A DNA stretch of 64,000 nucleotides from Tubulanus polymorphus (Eukaryota; Animalia; Nemertea): positions 5,914,231-5,978,230 of the forward strand of contig NC_134033.1 in assembly GCF_964204645.1 (NCBI RefSeq), given 5' to 3'. Below are positions 7,284-28,975 of the stretch, piece by piece; positions within the stretch are counted from its first letter, which is position 1; the number at the start of each line of letters is the position of its first letter. The translations under genes were made by a program, and so were the position numbers. The notes under the pieces are model-generated. The model was not told where the DNA came from and made no database searches. It was given only the letters and a program-made list of their open reading frames with translations.

Positions 7284-7902
7284 TGTGAAAAGCGGGTTGC
7301 CCGTGTACTCTTATGAGAGCACTTGCGGCTCCTGTCGTAAGTTCGAACTCCCGATTAACTCGATGGAAAAAAGATGGTCGAAGGCTTCCAAGGCGGCGGG
7401 ATAACACGCCCTAAGTGATCCTGAAGAAGAAGAAGGAATAAACAAATTATCAATAGTCTCTCTAAAGATATAATTTATTTCTTCACAATTGATCTCTCAA
7501 ACATGGCGGTCACTGATCATCTCCCATATAAACATTAAAACCATTTTATAAGTCACATTGACTTACAATACATAGCACCAATTCAATTATGACTTAACAT
7601 TTACACAGACTAGAGATAGCCATATTGAATTTGCCAATACAAGAATCGGATTATTCAACTTTAAAAGTCCCGACAAAATTACCAAAGTGATAAATTTTCT
7701 AAATAATAAGGTGGACAAATGCAAGATAGAATTCACGAATAAGAATAAATAATTCTCACCTGAAGAAGAAGGAATAAACAAATTATCAATAGTCTCTGTA
7801 AACATATAATTTATTTCTTCACAATTGATCTCTCAAACATGGCGGTCACTGATCATCTGACAACCAGGTTTGAGCGATGAAAACTAAGGAAAGCTAAATA
7901 CC
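7284..7902 (-). repeat. 3' LTR of the Gypsy element (inner boundary uncertain)
   Basis: Starts TGTGA and aligns with 31455-32135. Contains an internal ~95-bp duplication (gaagaaggaataaacaaattatcaatagtctc...). Confidence 0.7.
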
Positions 7903-8317: not shown

Positions 8318-10579
8318 TTAACCTGAATCGCGATGACGTAACAGAAGAGCCAGATTCAACCATGCTGGAGGACGTCGTTCCCTCCTACTTCGTTGCAGGC
8401 CAACTTCCTCGACTACTTCATTGTCCCCAAAATCGGTTTCTTCCTCACGACCTACTATAATTGCATTGTCTTCAATTACATCATCAGTACGATTTTCAAT
8501 GTCACTGTGCCATTTTCCAGATAATTGAACCCTTCGAATGCATGGGTCATCTTCCTGTAATTCCACAGATTCATGCTGTCCGATCTCAAGGTCAATCTCA
8601 TTGCTGCCTTCATCACCGGGATCTTCATCCACTCTGTTGGCTTTGTAAATAGCTGAGATAACGTCAGAGTTGTACAATCGAGATAAGGTGTCGGCATCGA
8701 TGTTCTTTGAGCCGCTGCGGTACTCAATTTCGAGACCATACGTAGAAATAGACTGTAACCATCTATGAGCGGTGGCATCCAACTTTGCAGTCTTCAAGAC
8801 ATACGTGAGAGGATTATTATCTGTCTTCACATGAACCTTGCTAACGTAAACATAATCATGAAATTTATCTAAGGCACATTTGAGGGCAAGAAATTTCAGC
8901 TTGTGTACCTCGTAATTCCGTTCTGCTTTATTCAAGGTTCGACTGGCGTACGCAATGACGTGTAACTTCTCGTCCCCTAGGCGTCGCTGATAAAGTACTG
9001 CACCTAGGCCTTGTCTCGAAGCGTCGGTGTGTAATTCGAATTCTCGAGAATAGTCGGCAAAGGCTAAGACTGGAGGAGTGACCAATGCTTCCTTCAGCAG
9101 TTCGAATGCCTTCTGACAGTCTTCTGTCCAGTTTACCGGCGAGTTCTTGTTTTCTTTGCCAGTACATCCAACCAAAAGTTCCGTAAGTGGTTTGGCAACC
9201 TGGGCGTAACCCCTGATGAACTTCCTATAATAGCTGGAAAAGCCAAGGAAACTCCGAACTTCAGCAATGGTCTCAATTTTGGAGGGATCCGGCTCAATCC
9301 CGGCAGCCGATACTTTATGGCCAAGATGGATCATACTTTCGAGTCCAAATGCGCACTTGGATGGCTTCAACTTAAGACCAGCGATGTACAAGCGTTCAAA
9401 CACCTCTTCAAGCTTGGTGATGTATTAATCGAAGTAAACGGCGTGTACGCTTATGTCGTCAATGTATACGCAGCTTCCTTTCAGGTTTAAATCTCCAAGA
9501 CACCGCTCCATAAGCCTTTGGAAGGTTGATGGCGAATTCGTGGGGCCGAAAGGCAGTACGTTGAACTCATAAAAGCCGAAACCTGGGCCTACATTAAATG
9601 CCGTCTTTTTGCGGTCCTGCTCTGCCACCTCTACTTGCCAGTAGCCACTCCCCAAGTCGAGGCTGGCAAAGTAACGGGCACCTGCCATGCTGTCAATGAG
9701 TTCATCAATACGTGGAAGCGGAAATTGGTCACGAATAGTTCGAGCATTCAGGGTCCTGTAGTCTATGCAGAAACGGTTTTCTCCATTCTTTTTCCTGACG
9801 AGTACAATCGGAGATGCAAATGGTGAATGAGAATGCCGAATTATCATCCCGGGCGGAACTCGACGATACCGTTCTCTGAAAGGAGTACTGTCGGACATCC
9901 CATGCCGCAAGACATTGGTCCTACCCATATGCAGGTCACCGATCGCAAAAACCTTTCTCCATTTGACGAGGACCTCCTTCTGAATCTTCAATTCATCGCT
10001 GGTGAGCCCAGTTGACTTCTCAAATGCGAACAAATTCAAGAAATCATCGTCTGATATATCTGGGGAGTTGTGATCCAGACAAGTGTTATTGCACACAGGA
10101 TGAACAGATGTGCCATTCTGCAAGGAACATAAAACAGCCTTCGATGGAATGGTCACTGAGCGAGTATCTATATTTCTGATGATAACACTCCCTGCTGGAC
10201 TGAGTCAAACTTAAATTACTTACCGAAGGTACCAATAAAAGATTACCGGGAATATTACTTCCTTCATCACACGTAATAATTTGCTATCCTGTGTCTGTTC
10301 TCTTACATCTTCGAATGCCATGGATGACCATCTGCGAATTTGGCGGAATAACTACTGCTTTGGTACACCGAACGATATCCAATTGCTGGTTATCAGCTGA
10401 AAAATTCCTAGTGCACTGCCAAATCGACGGTAAATTTCAAGATCTCGTATCTCCAGAAGAACATTCATACCGAGCAAAACTGGAACTCTCTGGTGATATG
10501 GGGTATCCAGTACTACAAGGCAGAAGATAGAAACGCTGGCATCTACTATTCCAAGGCTCAGCTCAATGCATCCAATATA
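8318..10579 (-). pseudogene. pol: Gypsy pol: end of protease, reverse transcriptase and RNase H; integrase core deleted
   Basis: SPFASPIVLVRKK..RFCIDYR, LDLGSGYWQV, YIDD, LHTDASRQGLGAVL, TDNNPL, DADTLSR. The sequence then jumps to the RSRRERRPP tail. Frameshifted. Confidence 0.93.
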
Positions 10580-10937
10580 AGTAATAGGGATAATAGGCTT
10601 TCATACCAAAGGTCGAAGGGTCGAGCTCGTAAAAATGAAAATAATAATAATTTACAGTTGAATTAGTCGCGCACACTCCTAATTCAACTATAAATTATTA
10701 TTATTTTCATTTTTTACTCACTCGCCCCTTCAACCTTTGATACGAAAGCCTATTATCCCTATTACTCTTAAAATATTCATATATATGAATAACATTTAAA
10801 TCATTGAACTTCTAAAATCAATTTTAATAAAAAATATAGTATTAAAATGGAAGCAAATAAATACTACTGCCCAACATGTAATATCGATATAGACAAGTCT
10901 CAAAAAAAGCAAGACACAATAAAACTATAACACATTT
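10580..10937 (+). repeat. Left TIR; the first 187 bp form an imperfect palindrome
   Basis: Reverse complement of 28620-28975 apart from 2 substitutions and a 2-nt A-run indel. Confidence 0.95.
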
Positions 10938-11277
10938 GTTTTTAGTCTAGTTGGTTAAAGCAAAAACATTTATCGAATTAAGGAACTCAACACATAGTGA
11001 AAAATACGTTGAATCGTTATAAACACCCGATAATACTCAGCTATATAGTTGGTTGTATTAGCTCTAATAAACATATGTTACCAGCTTATATTTCAATTGT
11101 AAAGAGTTAATTAATTTCATTGATCTACATGCCTTTATTATTGATTTTTTTCAACTATATTTACAAGTCTCAACGCGTTGTGTATTATACATCATACGGC
11201 GGACGTTAGCGAATCACAAATCTCATAATTTACAAGTCTCAACGCGTTTTTTAGATGTTTCTGGACAATTAAGCTCT

Positions 11278-11382
11278 AACCAATCAAAAGTCTCATAATT
11301 CACAAGTCTCAACACACTTGTTCTAGATGTTTCTGAGCATAGAATAGTATAAATAGGCGCGCACATCAGACGCTTAACAGTC
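11278..11382 (+). promoter_or_regulatory. Putative RNA Pol II promoter: CCAAT box, TATA box and initiator-like site
   Basis: AACCAATCA at 11278-11286, TATAAATA at 11348-11355, ACAGTC about 30 nt downstream. Repeated caagtctcaac and tctcataa motifs nearby. Confidence 0.55.
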
Positions 11383-11969
11383 TACGGGTGAAAAGCAATT
11401 AGTTGCGTATACACACACAGAACGAAATACCAGCATATATCGATCGCTTTTCAACGGATATAGTCTCATAAACATTGTGTCATAACCAGGATATTCTCAT
11501 AAACGCTGTATCATAACAGTCTCATAAACACCACATCATATACAGTTTACAGTTCGCGAGTTAAATGTAAGTACAGTTTTTGTTTTTTAAAATCGCTAAA
11601 TATGAAACCTTTAAATATATTTATGTGTAGCAATTTATATTTTGATATATCTTTTAGATAACTGTGGAACTAGACCCAGAGTCAAATTAAACACACACAA
11701 ACTAGAGTTACCATAACAGCGTTTATTGCGTAATAACTAACAGTTTCCGGTTCTTGAAGTAAATGTAAGTACTGTTTTTTGTTGTTATTAAGAAGTCGGG
11801 AAAAGGGGTCACTAAATATAAAACCTTTAGTGTATTTAAGTAATTTCTATTTTACGTTAGATAAACCATTATAAGTTATAATAATTAGAAACGATAGACT
11901 TGAAAATATCATTTAATATCGTAGTTGCGGTTCCTCCATCATTACCACGTTATCTTTTAGATTACAAAA

Positions 11970-12816
11970 ATGTCGTATGGATACAAAAACTACAGAGAAA
12001 CTAAAGATCTATCTATGGAAGGAACAGAAGATTCTCATAATACTACTCTATCTGAGGAATCAACAATAATAAATCTTAAAACACAAGATACTCCTCTATC
12101 GGTGGACCTAACAGGAATAAATCTTGAAACTCAAGCGGTGGAATCAAACGCAATGGATATTGACCCAATAGAAATGGGTGAAGAAGCGCGAGAATCACAA
12201 GACGACAAAGGAACTATACAAGAAGTTCAAAAACATTTGGAATACTACAAAGAAATGACATCAATTTTAGAAAAAATTATAAAAAACAATCAATCTAGTG
12301 TGCCGCCGTTGCCGAAAAGACCAACAACCAATCTCGAAATATTATTAGGATTAAAAGTAGCAAAAACTAAAAAGAAACTGAGTGGAAAGGAGTTACACAA
12401 TTTTTTGAAATCAAAATTAACAAATGAAAAAGATGTAAGTTTTAAAGAAATAGAAGGAATAGTATCATTTGACGAAATAACTGTCTTATTAAAAAAAAAA
12501 TTATAGAATCTTGTTATTTAAAAAATCAAAACATTTATGGGACCATATTATTTTTGGGGATTATTTAAATAGGGGGTTTTCAATGTTTGATAAAGAAACT
12601 GAGGGGATTTCTTGGGGGGCTTGGGTTAAAAAATATATAAGAATTGGCGCTAGACACGATAGAAAATTAAGAAGCGTAGGTAGATTATTTAGATATAAAA
12701 AATTCCAATTATTAAATTTATCATTTGTTGAAATTATTAAATACTTACCGGAAATTGAAAAAATGTTAGAAAATAATTTAGAAATTAAGAAGTTTTGGTT
12801 GGGGGGGGGGTTATAA
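11970..12816 (+). pseudogene. Polinton accessory gene with a spliced 5' leader; single frameshift in the A-run at ~12490-12500
   Basis: The 178-aa and 101-aa ORFs abut across an A homopolymer. Upstream GTAAGT...TATCTTTTAG introns at 11567-11657 and 11765-11960. Confidence 0.6.
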
Positions 12817-13292
12817 ATTAAATGATGTACAGATTTACATAATATATTTACAAGTATGTTCGGTTGTTTCAATTTGTGTAATAGATATAATTGTAATTGA
12901 CGCATGCGTATTGAGAAGCGGCCACAAATGGCCGCTTTGTATTGCAAACTGATTCAATTTTGTAATGATTATATAATTGTGTTATTGTAACTGATGAAAT
13001 TTGTGTAATAATTATATAATTGTGTTATTGTAACTGGTGGAATTTGTGTAATAGAAATAATTATGATATTGCAACTGATGGAATTTGTGTAATAGATATA
13101 ATTATAATTGACGCATGCGTATTGAGAAGCGGCCACAAATGTCCGGCCGCTTGTATGATTTTGATATCAAGGATCCGAAATGATTTATCAACTACGGCGG
13201 CGAGGAATGAAAAAGAACAAGGAATTGAAAAGAGCAGCACATAGATTTCGAACAAAAATAAATCAGTTTTAGTAAAAAAATATGTATAATAA

Positions 13293-13961
13293 ATGGAACC
13301 AGAACAACCACAAACTATCAATATTACAAATAACACTAGCGTTATAAACATATACTACAAGAAGTGTTCTAAATGTGAATTAGATAAATTAGCTATAACA
13401 GAATTTAGTAAGCGTAAGATTAGCAAAGATGGTTTTCAAAATTGTTGTAAAACTTGTGCTAAACTATACACAAAACAATATCGAGAAGATAATATAAAAC
13501 ATCATAATTATTATATGACAAAATATATGAGAGAAAGATATCAAACAGATCTTAATTTTAGATTGAAACAATGCTTAAGGACTAGAATAACACAATTATT
13601 CAACAAAGAAACACATTCAGAAACACTATCTAATTTGTTGGGTTGTTCAGATGAATTTCTCAAATCATGGATAATATTTCAATTCGATGATAAAATGAAT
13701 ATAGATAATTATGGGGATTATTACCACATTGATCACGTGTTACCAATATCTAAATTTAACATGAATGATGAATACAATAAAAAACTTATTTGGGGTTGGA
13801 AAAATTTAAGGCCTTCAGAAAAGAAAGAAAATCAAACCAAATCTAATAAACTAGATTTACAGTTATATTTGGAACAGTTAACAAAAGCAAAGAAATTTAT
13901 TGAATTATGGAACAATAATCCAAATAATGAACAATATGTTGAGTCTTTAATGAGTGGTTAA
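13293..13961 (+). CDS. HNH-type endonuclease with N-terminal Cys zinc-binding region
   Basis: KKCSKC...CCKTC, then YHIDHVLP...WKNLRP...EN.TKSNK, the pattern seen in phage and giant-virus HNH nucleases. Confidence 0.75.
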   Translation: MEPEQPQTINITNNTSVINIYYKKCSKCELDKLAITEFSKRKISKDGFQNCCKTCAKLYTKQYREDNIKHHNYYMTKYMRERYQTDLNFRLKQCLRTRITQLFNKETHSETLSNLLGCSDEFLKSWIIFQFDDKMNIDNYGDYYHIDHVLPISKFNMNDEYNKKLIWGWKNLRPSEKKENQTKSNKLDLQLYLEQLTKAKKFIELWNNNPNNEQYVESLMSG

Positions 13962-14186
13962 AGAATAATATATCTCAAATAAAATATAATAAAAATTACA
14001 TACCTTCAACTAGCCATTATTTCTATTTTAATTTTTAATATTTTCTTTTCAAAAAAGAATACTTTATATCACAAATAAAAAATACTAAAAAAACAATAAC
14101 TAATACTAGAATTCTTTAGCTTTAACTAGCTAGTATCATTTGAAGAATACTTATAATATTTTTTTTGCTTTTTTTCTCTAATATAA

Positions 14187-14789
14187 ATGTCAAAGAAATC
14201 TAATAAGAATAGTATTGATATTGAAAAGACATTAGATGATTTGGGTATAAGTGATAATAAAGATACAGTTGCAACTAATTGTGCTCAAGTTAATAACAAT
14301 ATAGATTATGAATACTATTTATATTGTAAGCATCATCTTGAATTATTAATTGCTGGCGGGAAATCTAAGGACTTCTTAGGAAAAATAATAACTTTTCAAG
14401 AACTAGACTCTATGAAACCCGATAAAGTAATTAAATATTTTAAGATTTATGAAGAGTCAAGATTAGCTAGAATAAACGACTCTATAAGTGATGGTATTAT
14501 CAAATGTTATTCAAAATTATGTAACCGGCTAATACCAATTGATGATGAAAATAAATTATATAATGATTTGAAAAATGACTATTTAGTTATGACTGAATTA
14601 CAAAAATGGGTTGGATATGCTTCATTCCAATTAGGATCGGTTATGACATTGATTTCTACTGGTGTCATAACATTTTCGAACATCAAACCTATGGAATATA
14701 AATCAGGTAAGAACGAAACAGATGTACTACAACCAAACGTCGAAACAGAAGATGAATCAGAACAAAAATTAACTAAAATAAATGAGTGA
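14187..14789 (+). CDS. Polinton hypothetical protein (200 aa) with a C-terminal hydrophobic segment
   Basis: Intact ORF, TAAATG start, overlaps the next gene. Confidence 0.7.
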   Translation: MSKKSNKNSIDIEKTLDDLGISDNKDTVATNCAQVNNNIDYEYYLYCKHHLELLIAGGKSKDFLGKIITFQELDSMKPDKVIKYFKIYEESRLARINDSISDGIIKCYSKLCNRLIPIDDENKLYNDLKNDYLVMTELQKWVGYASFQLGSVMTLISTGVITFSNIKPMEYKSGKNETDVLQPNVETEDESEQKLTKINE

Positions 14790-15123
14790 TGGAGTTAAGA
14801 AAAAGGCTAGATCCGAGAAACAAATTAAATGGGCAAGAGAATTAGGTAAAAGATCATCAGAATTAAAAAAAGCTAAGAAAAAGAAATTAACTGATATAAA
14901 TGAATCTGGTATTGATTCAAATAATAATCCATCTAATTCTTCTAATAGTGGAAGAAATAATTACTTATATATTACAATTGGGTTAATCACAATTATTATA
15001 TTCTCCGGTGTAATATATAAATCAAAATTCAATTCTGATGATAAAGATGATTCTGATGATAAACCTATCATACCAGAAAATAAATCAAATGAAAATAAAT
15101 ATAAAATATTATTAATGGATTAA
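14782..15123 (+). CDS. Small basic single-pass membrane protein (113 aa)
   Basis: Lys/Arg-rich N-terminus; YLYITIGLITIIIFSGVIY transmembrane-like helix; TAAATG start. Confidence 0.7.
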   Translation: MSDGVKKKARSEKQIKWARELGKRSSELKKAKKKKLTDINESGIDSNNNPSNSSNSGRNNYLYITIGLITIIIFSGVIYKSKFNSDDKDDSDDKPIIPENKSNENKYKILLMD

Positions 15124-15126
15124 AAT

Positions 15127-16215
15127 ATGATGAAAAAAGAACAATATTTAAGAGATTTATATTACAACCCAGAAAGTGAAGTATCATATTCAAGTGTTTC
15201 AGAATTATGGAATAAAATTAAATCTGATAAAGAAAAAATAAAATATAGTGAATTAAAATCATGGTTACAAAATCAACCCACATATCAAATTCATAAAAAG
15301 ATGGATAAAAAATATTTAACAAGAAAAGTAATGGTTTCATATATTGACCAACAATAGCAAGCTGATTTAATTGACATGAAAAACTTAGAAGAATATAACA
15401 AAGGATATTTTTGGATACTAAATGTTATAGATATATTCAGTAGATACGCATGGTCAATTCCAATCAAAAATAAAACTGGTATAGAAGTTACAAATTCTTT
15501 CAAATTAATATTTAAAGAAGCTATTCCAGATAAAATACAATTTGATGAAGGTAAAGAATTTTATAACAAACATTTTAAAAAACTATTATCTGATAACGAA
15601 GTAGAATATTTTTCAACACATTCAGATAAAAAAGCATCTGTTATAGAAAGATTTAATAAAACATTGAAAACTAGAATGTGGAAATATTTCACCGCTAATG
15701 AAACATATAAATATATCGATGTGTTAGATGATTTAGTGAAAGGTTATAATAATTCTAAACATAGTTCTATAAATATGAAACCCATACAAGCTAGAAAAGA
15801 AGATAATTCGGAAATAGTTTGGAATAATTTATATGGAGCATTTGTTACACATGATTTTGGAGAACCTAAATTTAAAATAGGACAACATGTTAGAATTTCT
15901 AAATATCGAAAAACATTTTATAAAGGTTATACCTCTAATTTTACTGAAGAAATATTCAAGATTAAAAAGATAATATTAACTAAACCTTTTGTTTATAAAT
16001 TAGAAGATTTAAAAGATGAAGAAATATTAGGTTATTTTTATGAACAAGAATTATCATTAGTACCAAATCCAGATGAAATAGAATACAAAATAGAAAAGGT
16101 ATTGAAAACAAAAACTCTTAAAGGAAAAAAGTATTCTTTGGTGAAATATGAAGGATATGATGATAAATTTAATGAATGGATTTTATCTAGTAAAATTAAA
16201 AGAATAAATGAATAA
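15127..16215 (+). pseudogene. int: Retroviral-type (rve) DDE integrase with C-terminal chromodomain; premature TAG at 15355-15357
   Basis: DQQ*QADLIDM (W codon to TAG), VIDIFSRYAW, QFDEGKEF, KASVIERFNKTLK, YKIEKVLK...LVKYEGYDDKFNEWI. Confidence 0.93.
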
Positions 16216-16826
16216 AGATTTATTTATATTTGAACCACATAATATGTTAGTTACTGGAGTTACAAATTGTGGTAAAACACACTTCATATTAGATTTGTTA
16301 GAAACTATTTATAAAAATCATTTTGATAATATAATATTATTCTGTCCTACATATGAAATGAATAAAACATATAATAGAGATATAGTTAAGATAAAAAAGT
16401 TTATTATATTAGACCCTAAAACAGTAAAAGAAAATTTAGATAATTGTATAAAAATTACATTAGATATTTATAAAGGATCTAATAAATTATTTATTATTGA
16501 TGATTGCGCAAATTTACATGATTCTAAAATTAGAGAAAGTGAATTATGTTATTTAGCTCTCTCTGGTAGACATTTTGGGATAACAACTTAAATCAGAAAA
16601 TTTAAATCAGAAATATAATTCAATTGTGAAAGATTTTAGAGAGAATATAAGATTTCTAGTTTTATTCTACAACAAAGATAGAACATCTATGCAACAATCA
16701 TTGGAAGAAAATCAAATTATACCTACTGAATTACATGATGAATATATGAATAAATTAAAAAATAATAAAGGTTCAAAATTATTACTGAGATTACAATTTC
16801 CTTATGAATATAAATTTATAAAATAA
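16208..16826 (+). pseudogene. A32/FtsK-like genome-packaging ATPase, disrupted at ~16589
   Basis: Walker A GVTNCGKT, Walker B FIIDD, GRH motif; the frame resumes NQKYNSIVKDFREN after a short duplication. Confidence 0.9.
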
Positions 16827-16849
16827 CTATTTGTATGCCTATGTATTAG

Positions 16850-16940
16850 ATACCCTATTATATACCCTAATACCTGATACCCCTAATACCTGATACCCTA
16901 ATACCTGATACCTTAATACCTGATACCCTATTAGATACCT
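16850..16940. repeat. 15-bp tandem repeat (TACCCTAATACCTGA, ~4.5 copies) at the convergence of the two gene blocks
   Basis: Directly visible. Confidence 0.85.
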
Positions 16941-16997
16941 TAAATAATTTAAAACCCTTTTTTATTTACTATTATTTTATACAATTTTTAACCTTTA

Positions 16998-17930
16998 TTA
17001 TTCAATTTCTGAATCACTTTCACTATCAGACGCTAACAACATATTTAAATACTCTACCGAATCTTCTTCAACATCTTTATAATTTTTTTTCACCTTTTTC
17101 GCCTTTTTTACCACACCACCAATAGTTGTTTCATTGTTACGCTTATTGATCCTTTTTATCATATCATCAAAAGTTTCTTCTTTATGTTTCATAGAATCTT
17201 TAATATCAATATGTTTAACTGTAACTATATCATCATGTGGGTGTATGGCATCATTTTCATTATCATCTTTATTAGTGTTTGCTCCTAATATTTCATTTAC
17301 AGTGTTTGATCCTAATATTTCATTAGCATCGGTTAAATCTAATTCATCTTTATTAGGTGTTGCTAATAATAAATCTTCATATATTTTTTCACCATTTACT
17401 TTTTTATTTGAAACAAACTTTGTAACATATCTAAATGGGTGTTCTATAAATTCTTTTTTGCCAACACGTTCTATAACATTAGTAATATGTGAATTTGAAT
17501 TCATATGTTTATTCCAATTTGATGGAGCGTTTGAAAATTCACCATTACAATAACCACAATAATTTCTATTTTCACTAACATTTAATATTATTGCATTATT
17601 AGATGTAGAAGGTATTACGTTATTAGATGTAGTAGGTATTACAGATGTAGTAGGTATTACGTTATTAGATGTAGTAGGTATTACAGATGTAGTAGTAGGT
17701 ATTACAGATGTAGTAGGTATTACAGGTGTAGTAGGTATTACATTATTATCAATTACACTATTATTAACAACACCACTTTTATTATTATTGATTTCTATCA
17801 GTTTAGTTTTATAATTTTTAAAAATAGGATCAAATATCAAAGCTATATTACAAGGTATTACATAATATAAACCATCATTATTTTCATGTGTATCGATGTA
17901 TGGAATATGTTTATATACTTTACCTTCCAT
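16998..17930 (-). CDS. Hypothetical protein with VIPTT(S) repeats and a C2H2/matrin-type zinc finger
   Basis: VIPT repeats; CGYCNGEFSNAPSNWNKHMNSNSH; TAAATG start. Confidence 0.7.
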   Translation of the reverse strand: MEGKVYKHIPYIDTHENNDGLYYVIPCNIALIFDPIFKNYKTKLIEINNNKSGVVNNSVIDNNVIPTTPVIPTTSVIPTTTSVIPTTSNNVIPTTSVIPTTSNNVIPSTSNNAIILNVSENRNYCGYCNGEFSNAPSNWNKHMNSNSHITNVIERVGKKEFIEHPFRYVTKFVSNKKVNGEKIYEDLLLATPNKDELDLTDANEILGSNTVNEILGANTNKDDNENDAIHPHDDIVTVKHIDIKDSMKHKEETFDDMIKRINKRNNETTIGGVVKKAKKVKKNYKDVEEDSVEYLNMLLASDSESDSEIE

Positions 17931-17962
17931 TTATTATATATATTTTTATTAAAGTTAAAATT

Positions 17963-19210
17963 TTAATACATAACACTATCTAATTGTGAATTTATAATAT
18001 TTAATTGTGCGTCAGATATAATATAAATGTGCATTTTAAAATTTTTGATTCCCTTTTTCTTTGTCATGAATAATTGTATCCCATCTTTTGTATTTTGTAA
18101 TTTTTTCCCAGAACCATGTAATAAGTTATCTTCAGTTGTTCTAAAATCTAACCATAATGCAAATTTATTACCGGTATAATAATCAATTTGATTAATGTTA
18201 CAATTTTCAAATGATTTTACTTTTTCATTCATAAAATGTTTTTTAATTTCTACCCATTGATCTATCATTCTCATTCCTTGACAAAATATTTTATTCGCTA
18301 TACCTTCGATAGTTATTTCTACTTTTGTTATTTCAGGATTATAATAATTATCAACATTTATTGCGCCATTAGTATACGTTCCAATAGTAAAAAATATTAA
18401 TATACCTTTAATAGATCTTCTAGGAAAGTTAATATTCTCATTTATTATTTCATCATTTGCATTAATAGTTACAGTTTTAAATTTATCAATATAATCATAT
18501 AATAATGAAAACCCTTGATTGTATTGAGTTTGAATTGTTCTAGCAATATTTTCATCAGTTACTGTATCATATTCTAAACATATATTCGATAATTTATAAC
18601 TCATATCTTTATTAACGCTAGATATTACAATTTCATTTACAGGAGCAAATGTTATCTCAAATATAATATCTTCTTGAATTGTGTATTTATATAAAGGTGC
18701 ATTATTATTTATCAATTCAAAGTCTAATGGAATTTTATATTTGCTTCCATATATACTTTTTATCAATTTATCTACATCATTAGTTAATATTGCGCTATTA
18801 GCTTCGGATCTTAATTTATTTTGGTTTTCTGATTGGATTCCTTGAAATATCATATTATTTCTGTTTTCTTTAGTTAACCATAAATCTTTATAATGCATAA
18901 ATAAATTATAATCATCTAATGAGAAAACTGTTTCTGGACCAATCTTTATTGTTAACTTTTTAATCAAATATCTTCCAACATTATCAACGACATAATTATT
19001 AGTATTACCGATTACTTTTATATCAGCTGATAAATAAATACTATTTGGAACATAAAAAGTATTTTGCGTTAATCGAGGGATTCTAACGTATAAAGTTTCA
19101 TCGGGATTAATATTTGAAGGGTTATGAGTAATTATATGATGTGATCTTTCTGCTTTAATAGCATTAGATATTCTATGATTCTTAGAAGGATTGATATAAC
19201 TCCCACTCAT
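17963..19210 (-). CDS. Major capsid protein (double jelly-roll), intact
   Basis: 415 aa, beta-strand-rich. RIPRL..VPNSIYLSADI..VVDNVGRYLIKKL and FALWLDFR..LHGSG motifs resemble Polinton major capsid proteins. Confidence 0.8.
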   Translation of the reverse strand: MSGSYINPSKNHRISNAIKAERSHHIITHNPSNINPDETLYVRIPRLTQNTFYVPNSIYLSADIKVIGNTNNYVVDNVGRYLIKKLTIKIGPETVFSLDDYNLFMHYKDLWLTKENRNNMIFQGIQSENQNKLRSEANSAILTNDVDKLIKSIYGSKYKIPLDFELINNNAPLYKYTIQEDIIFEITFAPVNEIVISSVNKDMSYKLSNICLEYDTVTDENIARTIQTQYNQGFSLLYDYIDKFKTVTINANDEIINENINFPRRSIKGILIFFTIGTYTNGAINVDNYYNPEITKVEITIEGIANKIFCQGMRMIDQWVEIKKHFMNEKVKSFENCNINQIDYYTGNKFALWLDFRTTEDNLLHGSGKKLQNTKDGIQLFMTKKKGIKNFKMHIYIISDAQLNIINSQLDSVMY

Positions 19211-19252
19211 TTATTTAACAAAAAAAATTAATTATTTATTTTTGATCATGGT

Positions 19253-20695
19253 TTACTTGATATTTTTTGATATCATATTTACTAAACCAAAAATAATAGC
19301 ACTTACAACTGTGATTAAAAATAAAATAATATGTTCAGCAGCAAAGTTAATAATGTTTCCTGCAGATTTCAATATAAAACCAACAATTGAAGCAATAACT
19401 CCTGGCAATGCTGCAGCAGATTTTTTAGATAGTTCCCATAAATATTTTGCTAATTTCTTTAAACCATCTTTAACTTTATCTTGTATAGAATTATTGCCTG
19501 GAGGTTTATCTGGTTTATTGGGAGTGGGAGTAGATTTCAAAGCATTTGATATTGCTAAACCAATTGTTGTAAATACCATAGTTACAGCTGTTAGAATTGA
19601 AAGAATTGTTATTCCTTCTAATTTAAATAATAATTTTATTCTATCTTTTAGTGATATGTCAGAATTTGGTTTTAGTATTAACTCTTTAACAACAACTTTT
19701 AATCTATTGATACAATAATCGTATGATGTTGATAATAATTTCATTTTTTCTTTCTGAAATTCTATGTTATATTCTAAATCATCAATTTCTTTTTCTAAAC
19801 GTAATTCTTTTTGTTTATATTCTATTTCATCAATTACTTGATAATCTAAATCAGACTTTAATTGTTCTATTTCTTTATTTTTATCAGTTAATTCTTTTTC
19901 TAAAGTTCTAATTTTTTGATCTCTTATACTTTTATTATATGCAATATTTTCAGATGCAAGTCTTATACTAACAATTTCTCTTATTGCTTTATCAGAAAAT
20001 ATATCTAAATCTTCTAATTGTTGATTTGTTGCATCAAGTAATCCATTTGGTAAAAGTTTTTCAGTTTGAACTTCTCTTGAATTAGGTTTACTAGTTTTGG
20101 AAGTTTTATCTTCTTTAGGAATTGTTTCTGGTTCTAAATTTTCATTAATTATCTTCAAAAAATCATTATTTCTTCGATTAAATTCTCTTCTATTTTGATT
20201 TATCTCTTCTTTTGTAACATCAGTTATAACATCATTATTGATTTTCTTAATTCTAGATTGTTCTAATTTAATAAAAGTTGATTTTGTTATTATTTTATCA
20301 AGACTTTTATTAGAAGAAATCTTAAAATAATAGTCATCTTTCAAATGCCAATAATAATCACCATTTAAATATTTCAAATCTTTTACTAAATAATTCACAC
20401 CTTTATTTGTTATATTGAATCCAGATTTTTCTAATATTGGTTTGAATTTATCAGTTAATTCGTCATATTCTAGTTCTTTTTTCATTAAATCTGGATTTTC
20501 ATTTTCAATGTCCAATCTTGAACGTGCTTTATTAACATATTCATTAGTATCAGGTCTTGCTAAATTAGAATTATATGCTGATTCATCATCATTATCAATA
20601 TTAGTTTCTGCATCATTATAATCATCATCAATATATCCTTCATTATCATTTCCCATTTCTCCCATTTCATAATCTTCTCCACCTTCTACATCCAT
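19253..20695 (-). CDS. Coiled-coil protein with C-terminal hydrophobic/amphipathic helices (480 aa)
   Basis: Acidic N-terminus, heptad-rich middle, ITILSILTAVTMVFTTIGLAI and IILFLITVVSAIIFGLV. Confidence 0.75.
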   Translation of the reverse strand: MDVEGGEDYEMGEMGNDNEGYIDDDYNDAETNIDNDDESAYNSNLARPDTNEYVNKARSRLDIENENPDLMKKELEYDELTDKFKPILEKSGFNITNKGVNYLVKDLKYLNGDYYWHLKDDYYFKISSNKSLDKIITKSTFIKLEQSRIKKINNDVITDVTKEEINQNRREFNRRNNDFLKIINENLEPETIPKEDKTSKTSKPNSREVQTEKLLPNGLLDATNQQLEDLDIFSDKAIREIVSIRLASENIAYNKSIRDQKIRTLEKELTDKNKEIEQLKSDLDYQVIDEIEYKQKELRLEKEIDDLEYNIEFQKEKMKLLSTSYDYCINRLKVVVKELILKPNSDISLKDRIKLLFKLEGITILSILTAVTMVFTTIGLAISNALKSTPTPNKPDKPPGNNSIQDKVKDGLKKLAKYLWELSKKSAAALPGVIASIVGFILKSAGNIINFAAEHIILFLITVVSAIIFGLVNMISKNIK

Positions 20696-20711
20696 TTACA
20701 TAATAAAAAAA

Positions 20712-22019
20712 TTAAAATTTAAAATATAATATTCCTCCGATTACAATTCCTATACAAGTTATAGCTAATTTAGTATTTTCATGGGATTTATTATCATCAT
20801 TAGTTTTAATTATATCATGTTGAATTTTATCAGTTCTATTATTTTCTGATGTATTGTAATCTTTTATTTTAGAATCATTATTTAATTTAATATTCTTAGT
20901 TTTAGTTTCTGTTGATTGAATATGTTTTTTATTTTTTTTTACCTTCCATTAATTTTGGAGCAGTAATAATCTTTTTATTTATACCATTCAATCCAAATGA
21001 ATTATTTATTGTTGCAGTTTTAATTAGATTATTATAACCAATTATGTTTCCCATCTTTAATACTAAATCATTAGAAATAATTAATAGATTAGGGCCTATA
21101 CAATAATTAAGTCTTACATGAGATTTATCTAAATAATTTTGATATCTTATAATGTTTTCTGGAATCGATCTATTTTTATCATCATGTATGGAATCTTCAA
21201 ATAAAACTTTAAACTGTTTCTGCGCATCGAATGAAGTGTTATCATTTCCAATTATTGGGGATCTTGTTTCAACTTGGGCGCCTAGAATACATATCAAATA
21301 AATTCTAATAGATTGATTTATTCTTTGTATACCTGATTTTGTAAAACCTTCACCATTTTCTAAAATGAAATTAACCCAACCATTATTATTATCAATTTTA
21401 TAATTATGATAAGCTGAAATTCTATGCATATAATCAATTCTTTTTATTTCAAACTCTTCACCAACACCTTGCAATTTACCATGCGCTCTAAAATCGGAAT
21501 TAATATTTATATTAAATTCATTACATATTTTATAAAACTTGGATATATTAATATTATTATCCAATTCTTTAAAATATTTAGACCCGGGTAAAGGACATTC
21601 TAATTCATTTAATATTATTCTGATTTGAAAATATGTGTGAAATCTAAATATTGTGTGAATTAATTTTAAATCAGAATACTTCAAATTTTTATCTAAGTTA
21701 TTTAAATGATCATTCCAACTTATTCCACATCCTGTTGTTGTACAATAAACAGCAAAATTTAATTGATTCTGCCAATATTTCATATTAGATTTTACTTTAT
21801 ATATATGATATTCATCTCGAGTAAAAGTAACTTCATATGTATTAAATATATTTTCCATTTTAGAAATAAAAAACTGTGATTCATTAACATAAATTTCTAA
21901 ATTAGTTAATGAATTTAAAACTATATTTTTATATGTAATATTTTCTTAAAATCTATTGCCGGAATATTATATTTAATTGATTTATTATATTGGAAAGCTT
22001 TTGGAAAACTATCTGCCAT
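20712..22019 (-). pseudogene. Polinton hypothetical protein (~435 aa when repaired) with a C-terminal membrane anchor; two A-run frameshifts
   Basis: MADSFPKAF start at TAAATG, frameshift ~21940, core ORF 20929-21858, frameshift ~20935, tail HENTKLAITCIGIVIGGILYFKF*. Confidence 0.7.
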
Positions 22020-22035
22020 TTATATAATTAAAAAA

Positions 22036-22470
22036 TTAATAATTTATTAATTCTTTTAATAATTTATCTTGTTCTTCAACTGTTATATGACCATTTAAAC
22101 TTATTATATAATCTAGTGTGTTCTTTGATTTATTAATTTCTTTTATATTAGTTTTGATTTTTTCTTTATTACTTTTTATATTTAATTTTGAACTTATACC
22201 AGTTAAAACACTTGAACTTAATCCTAATACACCAATTGATATAGCTAAAGGTGTTAATGGACTGAATATTGCTAGAAATGTTATTACAGAACTAATTGTA
22301 ACCGAACCACTTATAATCAAATAATATATAATTTTACTTTTTAAATATTTTTTCTTTTTTATCTTTAAGTCACTTTCAAATTCTAATATTTGTTTTTCTA
22401 AATATATTTTTAATTTAGTTTTATTTATATCATGAGGAATAATATCAATACTATCAACTTTATCTTCCAT
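22036..22470 (-). CDS. Two-transmembrane hairpin protein (144 aa)
   Basis: IIYYLIISGSVTISSVITFLAIF and LAISIGVLGLSSSVLTGI flanked by charged helices. Confidence 0.7.
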   Translation of the reverse strand: MEDKVDSIDIIPHDINKTKLKIYLEKQILEFESDLKIKKKKYLKSKIIYYLIISGSVTISSVITFLAIFSPLTPLAISIGVLGLSSSVLTGISSKLNIKSNKEKIKTNIKEINKSKNTLDYIISLNGHITVEEQDKLLKELINY

Positions 22471-22489
22471 TTATTTAGAATAAAAATTA

Positions 22490-22912
22490 CTAATTAGTAA
22501 ACTTATAAGCAACAAATATAACAATAACTGTTCCACCTAAAATCCATATTATTTCATATTTCTGTTGTTCTTTACTTGGGGTATAATAATCTGATAATTT
22601 AGGTTTGTATAGATGTAATTTTTCTTTATTTGTTACTGCGTTATATAAACTCATTGCATCATCAACTGATTGAAAATCTCTATGTGAAATCTTCTGATCA
22701 TATAATTCTTTATTGATGTCATCCATATAGTTTTGTCTTTTTTCTCTATATTCTTCTGCAGCTTTATTGTATTTCTCTAACGCTAAGTTATGTCTTCTTT
22801 GTTCACCTAATGAACTATTTTTATCAATATGTTTAAATAAATAACCACCACCAGTAAATGCTAAAGCGTTAACAATTGCTGATCCTATAATAGTTATAAT
22901 TGCAGAAGCCAT
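22490..22912 (-). CDS. Membrane-associated protein (140 aa)
   Basis: Hydrophobic N-terminus (AIITIIGSAIVNALAFTGGG) and C-terminal IIWILGGTVIVIFVAY. Confidence 0.7.
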   Translation of the reverse strand: MASAIITIIGSAIVNALAFTGGGYLFKHIDKNSSLGEQRRHNLALEKYNKAAEEYREKRQNYMDDINKELYDQKISHRDFQSVDDAMSLYNAVTNKEKLHLYKPKLSDYYTPSKEQQKYEIIWILGGTVIVIFVAYKFTN

Positions 22913-22937
22913 TTATTTAACAAAAAAAATTATGCAT

Positions 22938-23159
22938 TTATATGGGAGGAATATATTTTTGTTTTTCCAAATAATCAATAGTTAAATTAGATAAAGTAAC
23001 TGCTAACGTTAACTTTAAAATATCATTTATATCAAATCTATCAACATTAACACTTCCCATTTTGAATACTTTTTTTAATACCATTGAATAACCAACAGTT
23101 CCAACTGATAGTAATGCGCCATTATATAATCCAGTTATTATCCACTTATTATCACTCAT
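22938..23159 (-). CDS. Small hydrophobic protein (73 aa)
   Basis: TAAATG start; two apolar segments. Confidence 0.6.
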   Translation of the reverse strand: MSDNKWIITGLYNGALLSVGTVGYSMVLKKVFKMGSVNVDRFDINDILKLTLAVTLSNLTIDYLEKQKYIPPI

Positions 23160-23515
23160 TTATTTATCAAAAAATTACTATCATCAAAATATTTAGTTAA
23201 CTTATTTATAATTAATTCAACATTTATTTTATTACTAGTTTCATTTGTATATATTTCAATTATTATTTTTTTAATATCATCGATTATAAAATCTTCATCT
23301 AATTCATAAAATCTTAAAGATTCTCTAATTAAATTAGTAATCTTTTCTACATTTAAAGTTTCTTTATCAATTGTTGTTTCATACTCAAATGTTGTTTCAT
23401 TAGAAAATGCAATATTTTTGATATGTGTTATTACATCATTAATGTTAAATTTCATTTCTTTCTCACGTTTAAAATCAAATCCAAAACATATACTCGGTCC
23501 AACAGTTATATTCAT
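23156..23515 (-). CDS. Hypothetical protein (119 aa)
   Basis: TAAATG start; ATGA overlap with the downstream gene. Confidence 0.6.
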   Translation of the reverse strand: MNITVGPSICFGFDFKREKEMKFNINDVITHIKNIAFSNETTFEYETTIDKETLNVEKITNLIRESLRFYELDEDFIIDDIKKIIIEIYTNETSNKINVELIINKLTKYFDDSNFLINK

Positions 23516-23531
23516 TTATATATCAAAAAAA

Positions 23532-24287
23532 TTACTCTTTACATCTTATAACTAATTCATAAATTACAGGAAAGTTATTTAAATCAATTAAGCATCCATT
23601 ATGATTTCTTATTTCTAATTTAAAATTATTAAATTTAGGAATGCAAGGTTTAAAATCACATTCTGTTAAATTATAATTTATTTGAGTTCCAAATTGTTTA
23701 ACATTTTTTAGCGGTAAAATATTTAGTATACTAGAACTACAAATTGTTTCTTTAGTTGCTTCGAAAGTTTTTGTAGGCTCGATTAAATTGCAATAAATAT
23801 AAAAGTGTGTAAAAGGTATTATATTTGAGCTGCCTTCTGCGTTTCCAGTAACTGTAAGCGGTTTAATTCCTAACATTTTAGCCAGTGGTTTGTTTACCAT
23901 AAATTTATGTTGTTCATTAGATATTTTTATTCTAATTTTATTAGTACTATCAATTTCATTAAATTTAATTTCAAATACAGAAGTGCCCCCGATTTTCAAC
24001 CGAGCTCTTCTATTAATTTCCTGCGCTAATGATTCTAAATTATATAATCCTGGTTTTAAAAATATATGAAACCATTTATCTTTATTTCTCATATAAATCA
24101 TAAACCCTCTATGTTCAAAAGTTTTATCCGATATATTATAAAAAGAATTACATAAACTTATATTAACTAATTTTAAATCTACACAATTCTTAAATTCTCT
24201 ATCTAATTGAACTAATAAATTATGTGATTTATAATTTGTAAGCCTTCTAGAATCAACAAATATTCTGTATTCTTTTAATTCCGCCAT
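23532..24287 (-). CDS. Minor capsid protein (penton, single jelly-roll), intact
   Basis: IFVDS, NSFYNI, PGLYN, LAKMLG, YIYCNLI, LEIRN..G.LIDLN pattern of Polinton/virophage pentons. Confidence 0.8.
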   Translation of the reverse strand: MAELKEYRIFVDSRRLTNYKSHNLLVQLDREFKNCVDLKLVNISLCNSFYNISDKTFEHRGFMIYMRNKDKWFHIFLKPGLYNLESLAQEINRRARLKIGGTSVFEIKFNEIDSTNKIRIKISNEQHKFMVNKPLAKMLGIKPLTVTGNAEGSSNIIPFTHFYIYCNLIEPTKTFEATKETICSSSILNILPLKNVKQFGTQINYNLTECDFKPCIPKFNNFKLEIRNHNGCLIDLNNFPVIYELVIRCKE

Positions 24288-24304
24288 TTATTTTACATAT
24301 TTTC

Positions 24305-24646
24305 TTATTCGAAATCTATTTCATGGTGCCCTTTTTCATTCTTACCTTTGTATACGAAATAGAAATCTCCAGAACATAATTCTTCTAGATCTTCACTTGA
24401 TAATCTATGAAATCTATCTGGTAAATAAGTTCTGAATTTATATTTATTTCCTTTTAATCCTTCATATTCTAAATGAATTACTAATTTATCTCCATATTTG
24501 TTAGTAACTGTAACAATATTTGTAATTAAATATTTCTTGTGAATTGTTAATTCTGTTAACTTTTTGAATTTATAATCTACAGATTTTATATTTGTGGTAT
24601 CTTTAATTCTATCTAAGAATTCACTGTGTACTTGTTTACTCTCCAT
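24305..24646 (-). CDS. Small beta-rich protein, possible OB-fold ssDNA-binding protein
   Basis: KLTEL...KYLIT....TNKYGDKLVIHL...YLPDRF; adjacent to pPolB. The fold is a guess. Confidence 0.5.
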   Translation of the reverse strand: MESKQVHSEFLDRIKDTTNIKSVDYKFKKLTELTIHKKYLITNIVTVTNKYGDKLVIHLEYEGLKGNKYKFRTYLPDRFHRLSSEDLEELCSGDFYFVYKGKNEKGHHEIDFE

Positions 24647-24674
24647 TTATTATACAAATTTTTATTGAAATTTA

Positions 24675-27600
24675 TTAACAGTTTAGAATCCTTTTCATAA
24701 TCTCATTTTCTTTTGTTTCTTCTCTTTTGAATTTTATATATTCATCTAAATTGCAACCATAGGCGACTGTGTGGATTCCATCATCTAAAATATATCTTTT
24801 ATCATCAAATGGGTTTAGACTTATCTTCTCTATCTCTTCAATATACATTTCATGATCTTCAGATCTTAAACATTTCATTTTATGTTTTCTAACTTCTTCA
24901 TTAAATATACAATTGATGTAATCTTTGAAATGAATATTCTTTTCAACAACGCTTTTGGTAATTCCTTTTAACTTTTTAGCTTCATGTTCTTTAGTTTTAT
25001 ATGAATACATTTTAGATCTAATACCAATGAACTCTATCATTTCTTCACCACCTAATTCATCTTTGAATTTACCGGGAACTTTTTTATTATCATTGCTAAA
25101 CAATTCATGATTTTTTGGATAGTTACTGAAATCAAAATGATGATTTAATATTTTTAAATCATCTTTTATATTATCACTTTTTATCTTTAATATGTAAGAA
25201 TCTGTATCTAAATATAATATTTCTATATTTTTTTCTCCAAAATGGGGTTGTAATATGTTATAGTAAAATTGATACATTAATAATTTTGAAATTTCTAGAA
25301 CCGATGCACCAACATAAATTGGTTTATTAAATTTCATACTTGTTCTTCTCATTTTAACTGCTGCTAAATTTTCATCAAATATTCTGTTACCTATGAATTT
25401 CGGATACGATTGTAAATGTCTAATTCTTTTACCATTACTAACTAACTCAATATCACTTCTATTTCTTATGTTTTCACATGTTTTTCCATAGAACGCATTA
25501 TTCATTAGTTTAAAGTAATCCTTCTCAAAATCAGTTTTAGCTTCAGTTCTCTGTTTGGTGTTAAAATCTATATATTTTTCTAACCATTTAGATTGATTGA
25601 ATGAAATATATCTATGTACTTTTTTTAATATCATTCCTTGATTCAAATAAAACTTCAACATTCTATAATGTACTACATAATTATATTAATCTTCTTGAGT
25701 TACCATTAACTTTTCAGTATGAATATGATTATCGGGTTTAATTCTTTTTTGATAATTTGATAATTCTTCATGTTTAACAGTTTTATGTTCGGGACAATAT
25801 GCTAGATTTCTAGATTTAAATTTAATATTTTCAGGGTATTCTAAATCTACAACAAAGAAGTAACCAATATCTGAATCATCTGCAATATCTAGGATTCTTT
25901 TCTTCCAATCAAATTTATCAATTTGTAAAACTTCAGTTATTTCAAACATCCCATAAGGTTGTGGTTCCATCATTGCCCAACCATAAAGATTATTTGCATC
26001 TATGTATAATAATTTATATCCAGGATTATCATTTACATTGAAATATCTATCACCCAATACACCTGAAACACCTCCTCTTATAGATTTTTCAAATAATAGT
26101 AATTGATCTATATTTGTTAACAAATCCATTTTTATATCTGTAAATTTTAATCCACAATCCCATGTTAATCCTGGTGATGAATAACAATGACAAGGATCAA
26201 TGTTAAAATATTTTAGGTTTACATCTCTAAACCTTTCGAATATATCGGTTAATAATAATACATCTGATTTTAAATATAAATCTACTAATTGTCCATGATT
26301 TTTAATTTCAAAATGATTCCAAATATTCAATGTTCTATTATAGACTTCATCTTTAACATATTCATTTTTTAATTCATCATAGAATTGTTCTTTCAATAAT
26401 TCAGTTATTTTAAAATCATTATGATTTTTATAGAAAGAATATGGAATCGCTCCTTTATATCTCATTAATTTAAAATCATCATAATTTGGGTAATATTCTT
26501 TTAATATCTTTAATTCATCATCAACTAATGATTTAGATAAATTATCTAATGAACTATTTAAAAATCTATATGAATCTATAAATCTTAGACACCCAAATTG
26601 GAATGATATATAATTCTCAGATGTTTTAGCTAACATTCTAAATTTATAAGTTGGTATTTTATCTTTTGATCTATTTGAATTTAAAATTTTTTTATTTCAT
26701 TATTAATTTCTTCTATTTTATGACATAGTTGCTTAATGAATAAATGCGCGTCATACCCCGATAGATTATGAAATATAACTGGTACAAAATTAATTTTCTT
26801 AGCTTGTAAATTACAATTCTCATATGCTACACCTCTAAATTTACCATTCAAATGATCATGGTCTCTTACTTTTTTATCTTTATAATTAAATATCTTTTCA
26901 CAATAATAACATTTATCTGTAAACTCAAATACTTCTTTATCTTCTGTCATAATTATTTCTTTATTTGTATTCAATAATTTACTAAATCTTATTTCATATT
27001 CAATTAATAAGTCACAAAAATGATTGATAACATTTTCATTTCTATAATGATAATATTCACTTTCAATTAGTTCTGGATAATCAGATTTAATATATAACCC
27101 GAAAGCAGCAGCTGATTGATGAATCTTTTTAATAGTATTTGTTATTGGTGGTTCTTCTGAATAATCACTTTCATTAGAATTTAATTTCTTTCTTTTATAA
27201 TATATATCTTTTCTATCTTTATCTGTTAATTCTTTATTTAATGATTCAAAAAAATCTCCATATATTACAAATGGTACTTTATTTTTGTAATCATATTTTT
27301 TGAATTCTAATATTTTATCCTTTTCATTTGGTAAAACTAATTTACAGTAATCATGATTATCACATAGTTGTTTATGATTTAATAATATACTTTCATTACT
27401 AAATTTATGTAAACATTTTCTACATAGATATATTTTATTATGGTGATCACTTTCTGTTCTAAAAAATAAATCTATTTGTTTAATCCACATATAATGATTC
27501 TCATAATATAGTATATCTATAACATCATTTGAATCATAATCTTTTGATAGGTATAAAGGTTCTAATGTATAATGTTTAATATTATTTCCTTTTGTATTTG

Positions 27601-28708
27601 GTAATTTAATTAAATCAAATACATATATCTTTAAATTATTATCTCTTTCTATTTTGGGGATGTTTTTAATTCTAACAGGATACTTATCTATCTTATAATT
27701 ATTTTCAAATGGTTTATAATGAGTTAATCTAAAACTATGTGTAATATCTTCTGTTGGATGTAAACAACTTATTATAGCCCATAGAAAACATTTATCATCT
27801 TCATTTTGTATATTTATTACAGCATTAGTTTTAAATGGTAGTTTAATATAACTTGATGCTTCAATATATGGTTCTTTATAATATGATAAATTATTTTCAT
27901 CAATTGGTTTTGATTTAGTTAACTTATTATATTTTGTGTTATAAACATGTAAAGTTATAAATATTATCTCATCAAATATTAAACCAGATCCTTCAAAATA
28001 TTTCTCTTCTATTTTAGTTTTTATTTCATTATAACATTTATTTAATTTATCATCTATATGTTGTTTAGATATAATATGTTGTGAATGAGAATTTTTATTA
28101 TATATTGGTTTATCTTCAGATTTTATAAACTTTACTTTAACTGATATACTAATTTTAGGATATTCAACATCCGTAATTATTTTTATTATTTCTTTCATAT
28201 TTTCTAAATGTTTTTTATTTTCTTCTATTGTTTTTCCTTTATGAAATTTAAACTCGATAGCTTCTGGACCAATATCACTTTTAAATGCTTCGGTTATCTC
28301 TATATCTTTTTTATTATCTAATGAATTAATATAATTTCTTACATCTTCCATGTATGGTCTTTTATTGTTTAATTTATTTTTTATTCTTTTAATTGTCTTC
28401 TGTTTCTTATCGTTATCATTATCAAAATAATCTTCACCTAAATTATCATTATTCTTATTTCTAATATGACTTATAGATTTTAAATGTTCTTTATAATATC
28501 TTTTATCACTGAATGATTGATTACATGTATCACATTTATATGTTTCTTTTTCATTCTTTAATTCTTCTAATTTAGTTTCTAATATATCATCCTTATATTC
28601 TAGTTTCAATTTATTCTCTAAATGTGTTATAGTTTTATTGTGTCTTGCTTTTTGAGACTTGTCTATATCGATATTACATGTTGGGCAGTAGTATTTATTT
28701 GCTTCCAT
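24675..28708 (-). pseudogene. polB: Protein-primed family B DNA polymerase with N-terminal zinc fingers, OTU-like Cys/His motifs and an EndoVII/HNH-like insert; one frameshift (~26690) and one in-frame TAA (25686-25688)
   Basis: FHNLSGYD (ExoII), YLKSDV (ExoIII), YIDANNLYGWAM, KLMNNAFYGK, YLDTDS, VRDHDHLNGKFRG, NEDDKCFLWAI...ENHYMWI. Adding one A at ~26690 and reading through the TAA gives one continuous frame. Confidence 0.95.
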
Positions 28709-28975
28709 TTTAATACTATATTTTTTATTAAAATTGATTTTAGAAGTTCAATGATTTAAATGTTATTCATTTATGTGAATATTTTAAGAGTAATAGGGAT
28801 AATAGGCTTTCGTATCAAAGGTTGAAGGGGCGAGTGAGTAAAAAATGAAAATAATAATAATTTATAGTTGAATTAGGAGTGTGCGCGACTAATTCAACTG
28901 TAAATTATTATTATTTTCATTTTTACGAGCTCGACCCTTCGACCTTTGGTATGAAAGCCTATTATCCCTATTACT
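28620..28975 (-). repeat. Right TIR; contains the pPolB start and the terminal palindrome 28789-28975
   Basis: Reverse complement of 10580-10937. Confidence 0.95.

Follow-up and report, generated by a model that had tools for sequence, protein, structure and literature searches.

An integrated Polinton/Maverick element of 18.4 kb (24% GC) lies at positions 10580–28975 of a 64,000-nt stretch of the nemertean Tubulanus polymorphus genome (contig NC_134033.1, 5,914,231–5,978,230, assembly GCF_964204645.1), which we refer to as the window. Nearly all genes of this element begin at one bipartite signal, an A/T core at fixed spacing followed by TAAATG over the start codon. The element has the termini AGT...ACT and is framed by a 6-bp target-site duplication, AATATA (left copy 10574–10579, + strand; right copy 28976–28981), and by terminal inverted repeats (left, 10580–10937, +, ~358 nt; right, 28620–28975, −). 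It encodes a protein-primed DNA polymerase (pPolB; PF03175, E 1e-11 on 25689–26636), an rve integrase with a chromodomain (PF00665, E 3e-7; 31.1 bits, slightly below the 32.6 cut-off), an A32-like packaging ATPase (PF04665, E 1e-7) and a double jelly-roll major capsid protein, the predicted model of which (pLDDT 87.5) matches the PBCV-1 and SGIV capsids (E 2e-16). Together, pPolB, rve integrase, terminal repeats, AG termini, 6-bp duplication, capsid and ATPase identify a Maverick/Polinton (Polintoviricetes). The window capsid gave no match to Sputnik_MCP, which another locus (L150) matched at E 2e-93; by its capsid, the element is not a virophage (Lavidaviridae). For an adenain-type protease there was no Pfam or PHROG match among the window open reading frames (ORFs), several of which are without assignment, and no tblastn match from outgroup ORFs. 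A 2026 preprint describes this protease as common, not universal, in Polintoviricetes, and the group as almost always found in animals.

On the + strand, the core and TAAATG were found at 13275–13295 ahead of an HNH/endonuclease VII-like gene (13293–13961), at 14169–14189 ahead of a conserved Polinton gene (14187–14789) and at 14764–14784, inside the upstream coding end (KINE*), for the gene at 14782–15123. The rve-chromo integrase gene (15127–16215), interrupted by a stop, starts with the variant TAAAATATG (15109–15129). The ATPase gene has a GTAAAAT core and TAAATG at 16190–16210, within the integrase end (RINE*). An HNH search returned a single match.

On the − strand, the core and TAAATG precede a zinc-finger-like gene (signal 17928–17948, gene 17930–16998), the major capsid gene (19208–19228, gene 19210–17963), a 480-aa gene with C-terminal hydrophobic helices (20693–20713), a conserved gene (22017–22037, gene 22019–20929) whose frame is broken here and whole in the related locus L003, a 144-aa gene (22468–22488) and a conserved 140-aa gene (22910–22930). 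They also precede a 73-aa gene (23157–23177, inside the upstream coding end, INK*), a 119-aa gene (23513–23533), a 251-aa gene (24285–24305, core AGAAAAT) and the gene of a 113-aa OB-fold protein (24644–24664). The 251-aa product has a weak DUF5901 match and is a putative penton, a label that we take from the Polinton gene layout. The best fold match of the 113-aa protein is the PRD1 P12 single-stranded-DNA-binding protein (E 0.004, weak), and it is probably a P12-like protein of this kind; as a candidate transcription factor it was dropped on account of that resemblance. The pPolB gene (28708–24675, in three pieces) has an AAAAAAT core and the variant TAAAATG (28706–28726). A further copy of the polB promoter, with the first polB codons, is held in the left terminal repeat. 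In all, four genes of the window copy carry breaks (int, ATPase, the 22019 gene and polB).

A sequence-only reading had proposed that 14 of the genes begin exactly at TAAATG. Every one of the 14 starts it listed proved to be TAA-ATG, which makes 14 of the 18 ORF starts in the element; its descriptions of the int and polB variants and of the three overlaps with embedded motifs were also accurate, and the TAA is the upstream gene's stop codon in 0 of the 14. Among 16 core genes there are thus 14 exact TAAATG starts and two TAAA variants. The ORFs at 11970 and 12583 have no TAAA-type start, and both lie in a stretch poorly covered in other runs. The enrichment that it had suggested checking was also borne out. 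TAA stands ahead of 24 of 255 out-of-frame sense ATGs (9.4%) and of 12 of 227 antisense ATGs. Under a null that takes as ORF start whichever ATG comes first behind an in-frame stop, the TAA rate was 6.0% in Markov-resampled element sequence and 6.7–10.1% in random sequence at 78–92% AT. Against these 6–10% expected, 14/18 corresponds to p values of 9e-14 to 2e-11.

We surveyed related Polintons by capsid alignment, using the best 80 of 141 metagenome loci and two genome loci. The motif was limited to one clade. In a quick capsid tree, 14 rows with TAA starts fell into one branch (SH-like approximate likelihood ratio test, 99), within which L015 is the sole exception, with TAAATG lying 4 nt upstream; outside the branch, TAA is seen in 0 of 43 rows with a scored start, and for 24 rows no start was scored. 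At ORF starts (≥70 aa), TAA was present in 57/69 cases in 15 clade loci vs 6/410 in 65 others, the clade count leaving aside the near-copy L002 and the unplaced L079. With starts anchored by homology, TAAATG occurred at 29/34 in close relatives vs 1/99 in other Polintons. The five anchored exceptions in the clade have TAAA a few bases upstream, and TAAA lies within 9 nt at 34/34 anchored clade starts vs 15/99 in the outgroup, where position −3 is a purine, the normal Kozak state, in 94/99. The clade loci are related and not independent, and these counts describe one clade, not many events. Composition does not explain the pattern: 15 AT-rich outgroup loci have TAA at 1/56 starts, and clade loci above 29% GC have it at 28/33.

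Several loci seen in the survey are of interest in themselves. L079 (721–1889), a short locus outside the tree, has TAAATG at 2/2 starts. L167 (9034 nt) is a different Polinton (integrase 47% and polB 37% to the window) with TAAATG at 7/7 starts and no A/T core; the search pattern that located it itself picks out two of these starts, and its motif possibly represents a second origin. The clade member L003 carries, behind the same promoter, a deoxynucleoside kinase gene (10340–10981; PF01712, E 2e-31), for which one relative was found, at 37%. Among the capsid relatives there is a copy from a bivalve, at 38%. A clade capsid protein with 54% identity (P0046) is filed under a Bartonella name and probably comes from host DNA within a bacterial assembly.

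The sequence-only reading had missed the upstream core. The complete motif consists of an A/T core at −18 to −13, T at −12 and then TAAATG. Among 70 clade starts, A stands at −18 in 53, positions −17 to −13 are nearly all A/T, −12 has T in 64 with A in just 2, and G or C reappears at −11 to −8 and beyond −19. The core of six A/T positions plus T (W6T) was present at 55 of 71 start TAAATG sites vs 9 of 129 non-start sites, which are mostly coding and GC-richer than the start sites. Position −12 among the 71 is T in 65 and A in 2, and this T/A asymmetry is not due to composition. Of the 56 AT-rich outgroup starts, 25 show T at −12 and 13 the core. Within the 64-kb window the full motif matched 13 times, always inside the element and 12 times at starts; 200 block shuffles gave a mean of 2.5 matches and a maximum of 8. 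The signal is independent of gene order and orientation. TAAATG is present at 17 of 20 head-to-head starts, the ATG-to-ATG gaps measure 19, 24, 24, 28, 28, 30, 64 and 72 nt, and closely spaced head-to-head genes (19–30 nt) both carry the motif. Position +4 is G in 48/70 starts.

A split into intermediate and late classes by A-rich or T-rich core was partly kept per gene and is not established; the ATPase and the putative penton belong to the A class, and Lys-rich coding ends contain some of the cores. The poxvirus early motif AAAAnTGAAAA occurs in the terminal repeats and at a few other places, at about chance level, and was rejected.

These data bear on the possibility that the motif acts in translation or at 3′ ends, the in-frame TAA blocking read-in or permitting stop-restart on a polycistronic mRNA, or AATAAA serving as the polyadenylation signal of the upstream gene. 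The TAA and the ATG do share a frame, AATAAA sits across 33/70 starts, and the genes are tightly packed. For stop-restart, however, only 12/70 starts have an in-frame ATG upstream that opens a reading frame closed by that TAA, and AATAAA is absent at 37/70 starts. Neither function accounts for the motif at the 17/20 head-to-head starts, where there is no upstream co-oriented gene. Moreover, TAA alone among the stop codons is favoured before first ATGs (59 TAA vs 16 TAG and 10 TGA), the exceptions retain TAAA(T) out of frame, and a stop signal would not predict a fixed core at −12. Trans-splicing is likewise disfavoured, with AG in −20 to −1 at only 16/70 starts. We regard a translation or 3′-end signal as quite improbable.

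A transcription signal could also be read by the host. Here the motif would be a compact promoter for RNA polymerase II (Pol II, or Pol III) used with a host or small element-encoded factor and giving very short leaders, the poxvirus likeness being convergent or a relic. In its favour, integrated copies are nuclear, the family is present in many copies in this host (contig depths in run X1 reach 3441, vs ~55–80 at the flank and at the empty site, by a rough measure), and transcription of other polintoviruses takes place with no helper known. The earlier argument that short intergenic gaps leave no room for Pol II promoters does not discriminate, as outgroup Polintons without the motif are equally compact and cope with gaps just as short. 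The geometry fits such a promoter poorly. A TATA-like box 12–18 nt from the ATG would put the start at or after the ATG, the usual TATA-to-start distance for Pol II being 25–30 nt. The initiator also overlaps the start codon and imposes a non-Kozak T at −3, vs the purine of most outgroup starts, and no transcription-factor domain was found in the window ORFs. We therefore consider the host-polymerase explanation unlikely.

We compared the clade with poxviruses using 19 chordopoxvirus loci from 17 records, which are orthologous regions and not independent, with 174 distinct start contexts. In published work, the vaccinia virus late consensus consists of TAAATG over the start codon and a conserved upstream T (PMC11980589), TAAA is recognised by the viral polymerase itself (PMC12917281), TAAAT is in use in salmon gill poxvirus (PMC4542343) and poly(A) leaders arise by slippage (PMC6211774). 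In our set, in agreement with the published consensus and with the salmon gill poxvirus usage, TAAATG was found at 5–15 of 19–24 starts per locus, contexts were A-rich at −19 to −15 with a T peak at −13, and head-to-head gaps were 24–29 nt in 17/21 cases. The skew profiles of clade and chordopoxviruses correlated at 0.63 with an offset of −1 and at 0.61 with an offset of 0, and at about zero or negatively at offsets of ±3–4. The element thus shares with poxvirus late and intermediate promoters (PMC11980589, PMC12917281, PMC5294985) TAAATG over the start, an A-then-T core about one helical turn upstream, placement inside upstream coding ends, head-to-head pairs of 24–30 nt and the TAAATATG/TAAAATG variants. 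It differs in using the motif on nearly all genes of a small polymerase-less element, where its role as a promoter is proposed from sequence.

We conclude that the bipartite signal is likely a post-replicative promoter of the type used by poxviruses and other nucleocytoplasmic large DNA viruses (NCLDVs). The claim of the sequence-only reading that TAAATG is a poxvirus-late-type transcription signal and not a translation context thus gained from the fixed-spacing core, the head-to-head pairs, the TAAATATG/TAAAATG variants, the clade restriction and the match to the poxvirus profile. Its "poxvirus" label is not diagnostic. TAAAT(G) lies over the start codon as in poxvirus late promoters, but the T peak falls on the ninth base upstream of TAAAT in the clade (−12, 91%) and on the tenth in chordopoxviruses (−13, 73%), where it is less sharp; T at −13 stands at 71% in the clade. 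TAAATG was also found at 5/22 starts of an iridovirus-like and 9/16 starts of an algal-virus-like record, both picked by a TAAATG pattern.

Which polymerase would read these promoters? Domain searches of the window ORFs detected no RNA polymerase, capping enzyme or transcription factor in the element. The sole unassigned ORFs large enough for a polymerase are the genes of 480 and ~360 aa, which are common to outgroups. With no such polymerase gene detected in the element, the likely reader of the promoter is a large DNA virus that co-infects and supplies its RNA polymerase. We consider it rather probable that this is a helper NCLDV, which would make the element a virophage-like Polinton, and somewhat more than half of that probability goes to a pox-like helper. 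A divergent invertebrate poxvirus would be the best-fitting candidate; an iridovirus-like or other NCLDV is possible.

The reader might instead be the cytoplasmic polymerase of a helper plasmid or sister element, as yeast pGKL2 provides for pGKL1. Yeast virus-like elements combine a TAAAN initiator, slippage-made poly(A) leaders and protein-primed linear DNAs (PMC6211774), and so resemble the present element; unlike it, pGKL1/2 are plasmids of the cytoplasm that bring their own polymerase, encoded on pGKL2, and have neither capsid nor integrase. The clade loci examined, which are fragments, showed no RNA polymerase gene, and no such plasmid was seen in the window. The upstream core is A/T-only, without the TGA-type upstream box of the yeast elements. 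A plasmid reader thus appears very improbable.

If a helper NCLDV polymerase is the reader, each gene would be a separate transcription unit, with initiation within the AAA of TAAATG. Through polymerase slippage, transcripts would gain a 5′ poly(A) leader, which would bring A to −3 and so restore a Kozak context, in keeping with the G at +4. The element would be silent until helper infection and then expressed, copied by its own pPolB and single-stranded-DNA-binding protein and packaged, as for mavirus. Reactivation of integrated mavirus is reportedly induced by its giant virus.

Several observations weigh against a poxvirus-type, helper-read promoter. The tenth-base T of poxvirus late promoters is displaced in the clade, as described, the strict W6T core matches only 25/174 poxvirus starts, and TAAATG starts are shared with the two NCLDV-like records above. 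TAAA lies within 8 nt of 30/56 AT-rich outgroup starts, so a Kozak context rich in A/T can give rise to TAAA-ATG. Two scans for a helper by motif (60 and at least 120 loci of viral contigs, the latter including 80 with full flanks) yielded no virus with a clear core match. Integrated copies are nuclear and the poxvirus polymerase is cytoplasmic, which poses a problem of access; iridoviruses have a nuclear phase, and such a helper would ease it. Several small ORFs are without assigned function, and an element-encoded factor is possible. The sister-lineage Polinton L027 carries a VLTF3-like gene (5082–5579; PF04947, E 4e-5). In corals, polintoviruses show expression although no helper is known for them (PMC11131425).

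The VLTF3-like gene of L027 had no BLAST match in the TAAATG clade, and a GTATA(T/C)AC-like word stands 10–17 nt ahead of several L027 starts. Capsid searches of the viral contigs revealed no relative. One contig considered as helper, L103, has the core at 3/3 TAAATG starts, one of them chosen by pattern; it was rejected, a further 20 kb of its bin showing mostly AAA-ATG without the core.

Other features of the locus concern its insertion history. The empty site, joining 10573 to 28976, was found in three runs from one study, and many variant copies of the element occur in the same runs. One run that may be RNA had almost no cover, which speaks neither for nor against transcription. A variable cargo region (10940–13270) contains short repeats and two ORFs without the motif, has low cover in other runs and is skipped by a joint that runs from 10824 to 13275. 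In each terminal repeat, the outermost 187 nt (10580–10766 and 28789–28975) fold as a near-perfect hairpin of an imperfect palindrome (z −15.3), a form reminiscent of viral hairpin telomeres. The Polinton apparently sits within a Ty3/Gypsy retroelement (7284–7885, 8318–10530, 29858–30286 and 31455–32110), with reverse transcriptase/RNase H to its left, a PNMA-type gag to its right and matching direct repeats outside. This gag, the bivalve capsid relative and the near-restriction of Polintoviricetes to animals all speak for an animal host. The host flank includes an inverted-repeat element and a 50-nt tandem array (52373–53458 and 62525–62905). A search for host genes returned no match.

Helper promoters have precedents in virophages and PgVV (10.1101/2022.07.28.501842, PMC8547959, PMC6401483). 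Mavirus and the endogenous mavirus-like elements (EMALEs), Sputnik and PgVV-14T (Gezel-14T), which carry promoters of the giant viruses that help them, are likewise small integrating DNA viruses that encode a capsid, lack an RNA polymerase and place one motif in front of most of their genes. They differ in having protist hosts, Imitervirales helpers and other motifs, whereas the present element has a Maverick-type capsid and a pox-type motif. Mavirus also encodes pPolB and an rve integrase. Polinton-like viruses (PLVs) are known from entomopoxvirus occlusion bodies and are proposed hyperparasites of animal poxviruses (Barth et al. 2024, PMC11296320). Unlike the element, they have a cysteine protease and no rve integrase, and the link proposed here is promoter sequence, not physical association. 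The literature searched, covering few subscription papers, yielded no mention of TAAATG or of promoters of the pox type for Polintons. There was no promoter analysis in the available main texts of PMC11296320, PMC11131425, PMC8502044, PMC11071308 and two 2026 preprints, from which their supplements could differ.

Taken together, our findings show a real clade-wide regulatory code in Polintons, helper promoters being already known for protist virophages and PLVs. More tentatively, and with clearly less than even confidence, we suggest that a branch of the integrase-bearing animal Maverick/Polinton elements may consist of endogenous virophages whose helper is a poxvirus-like virus of invertebrates yet to be discovered, the elements being germline-silent, helper-induced through pox-type late promoters and possibly kept as an inherited antiviral defence. 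That a whole clade has an NCLDV-type late promoter and its sister Polintons lack it points to one lineage depending on a helper, which would explain the inert look of such elements. The motif also provides a sequence tag with which a helper virus may be sought in the reads of the hosts.

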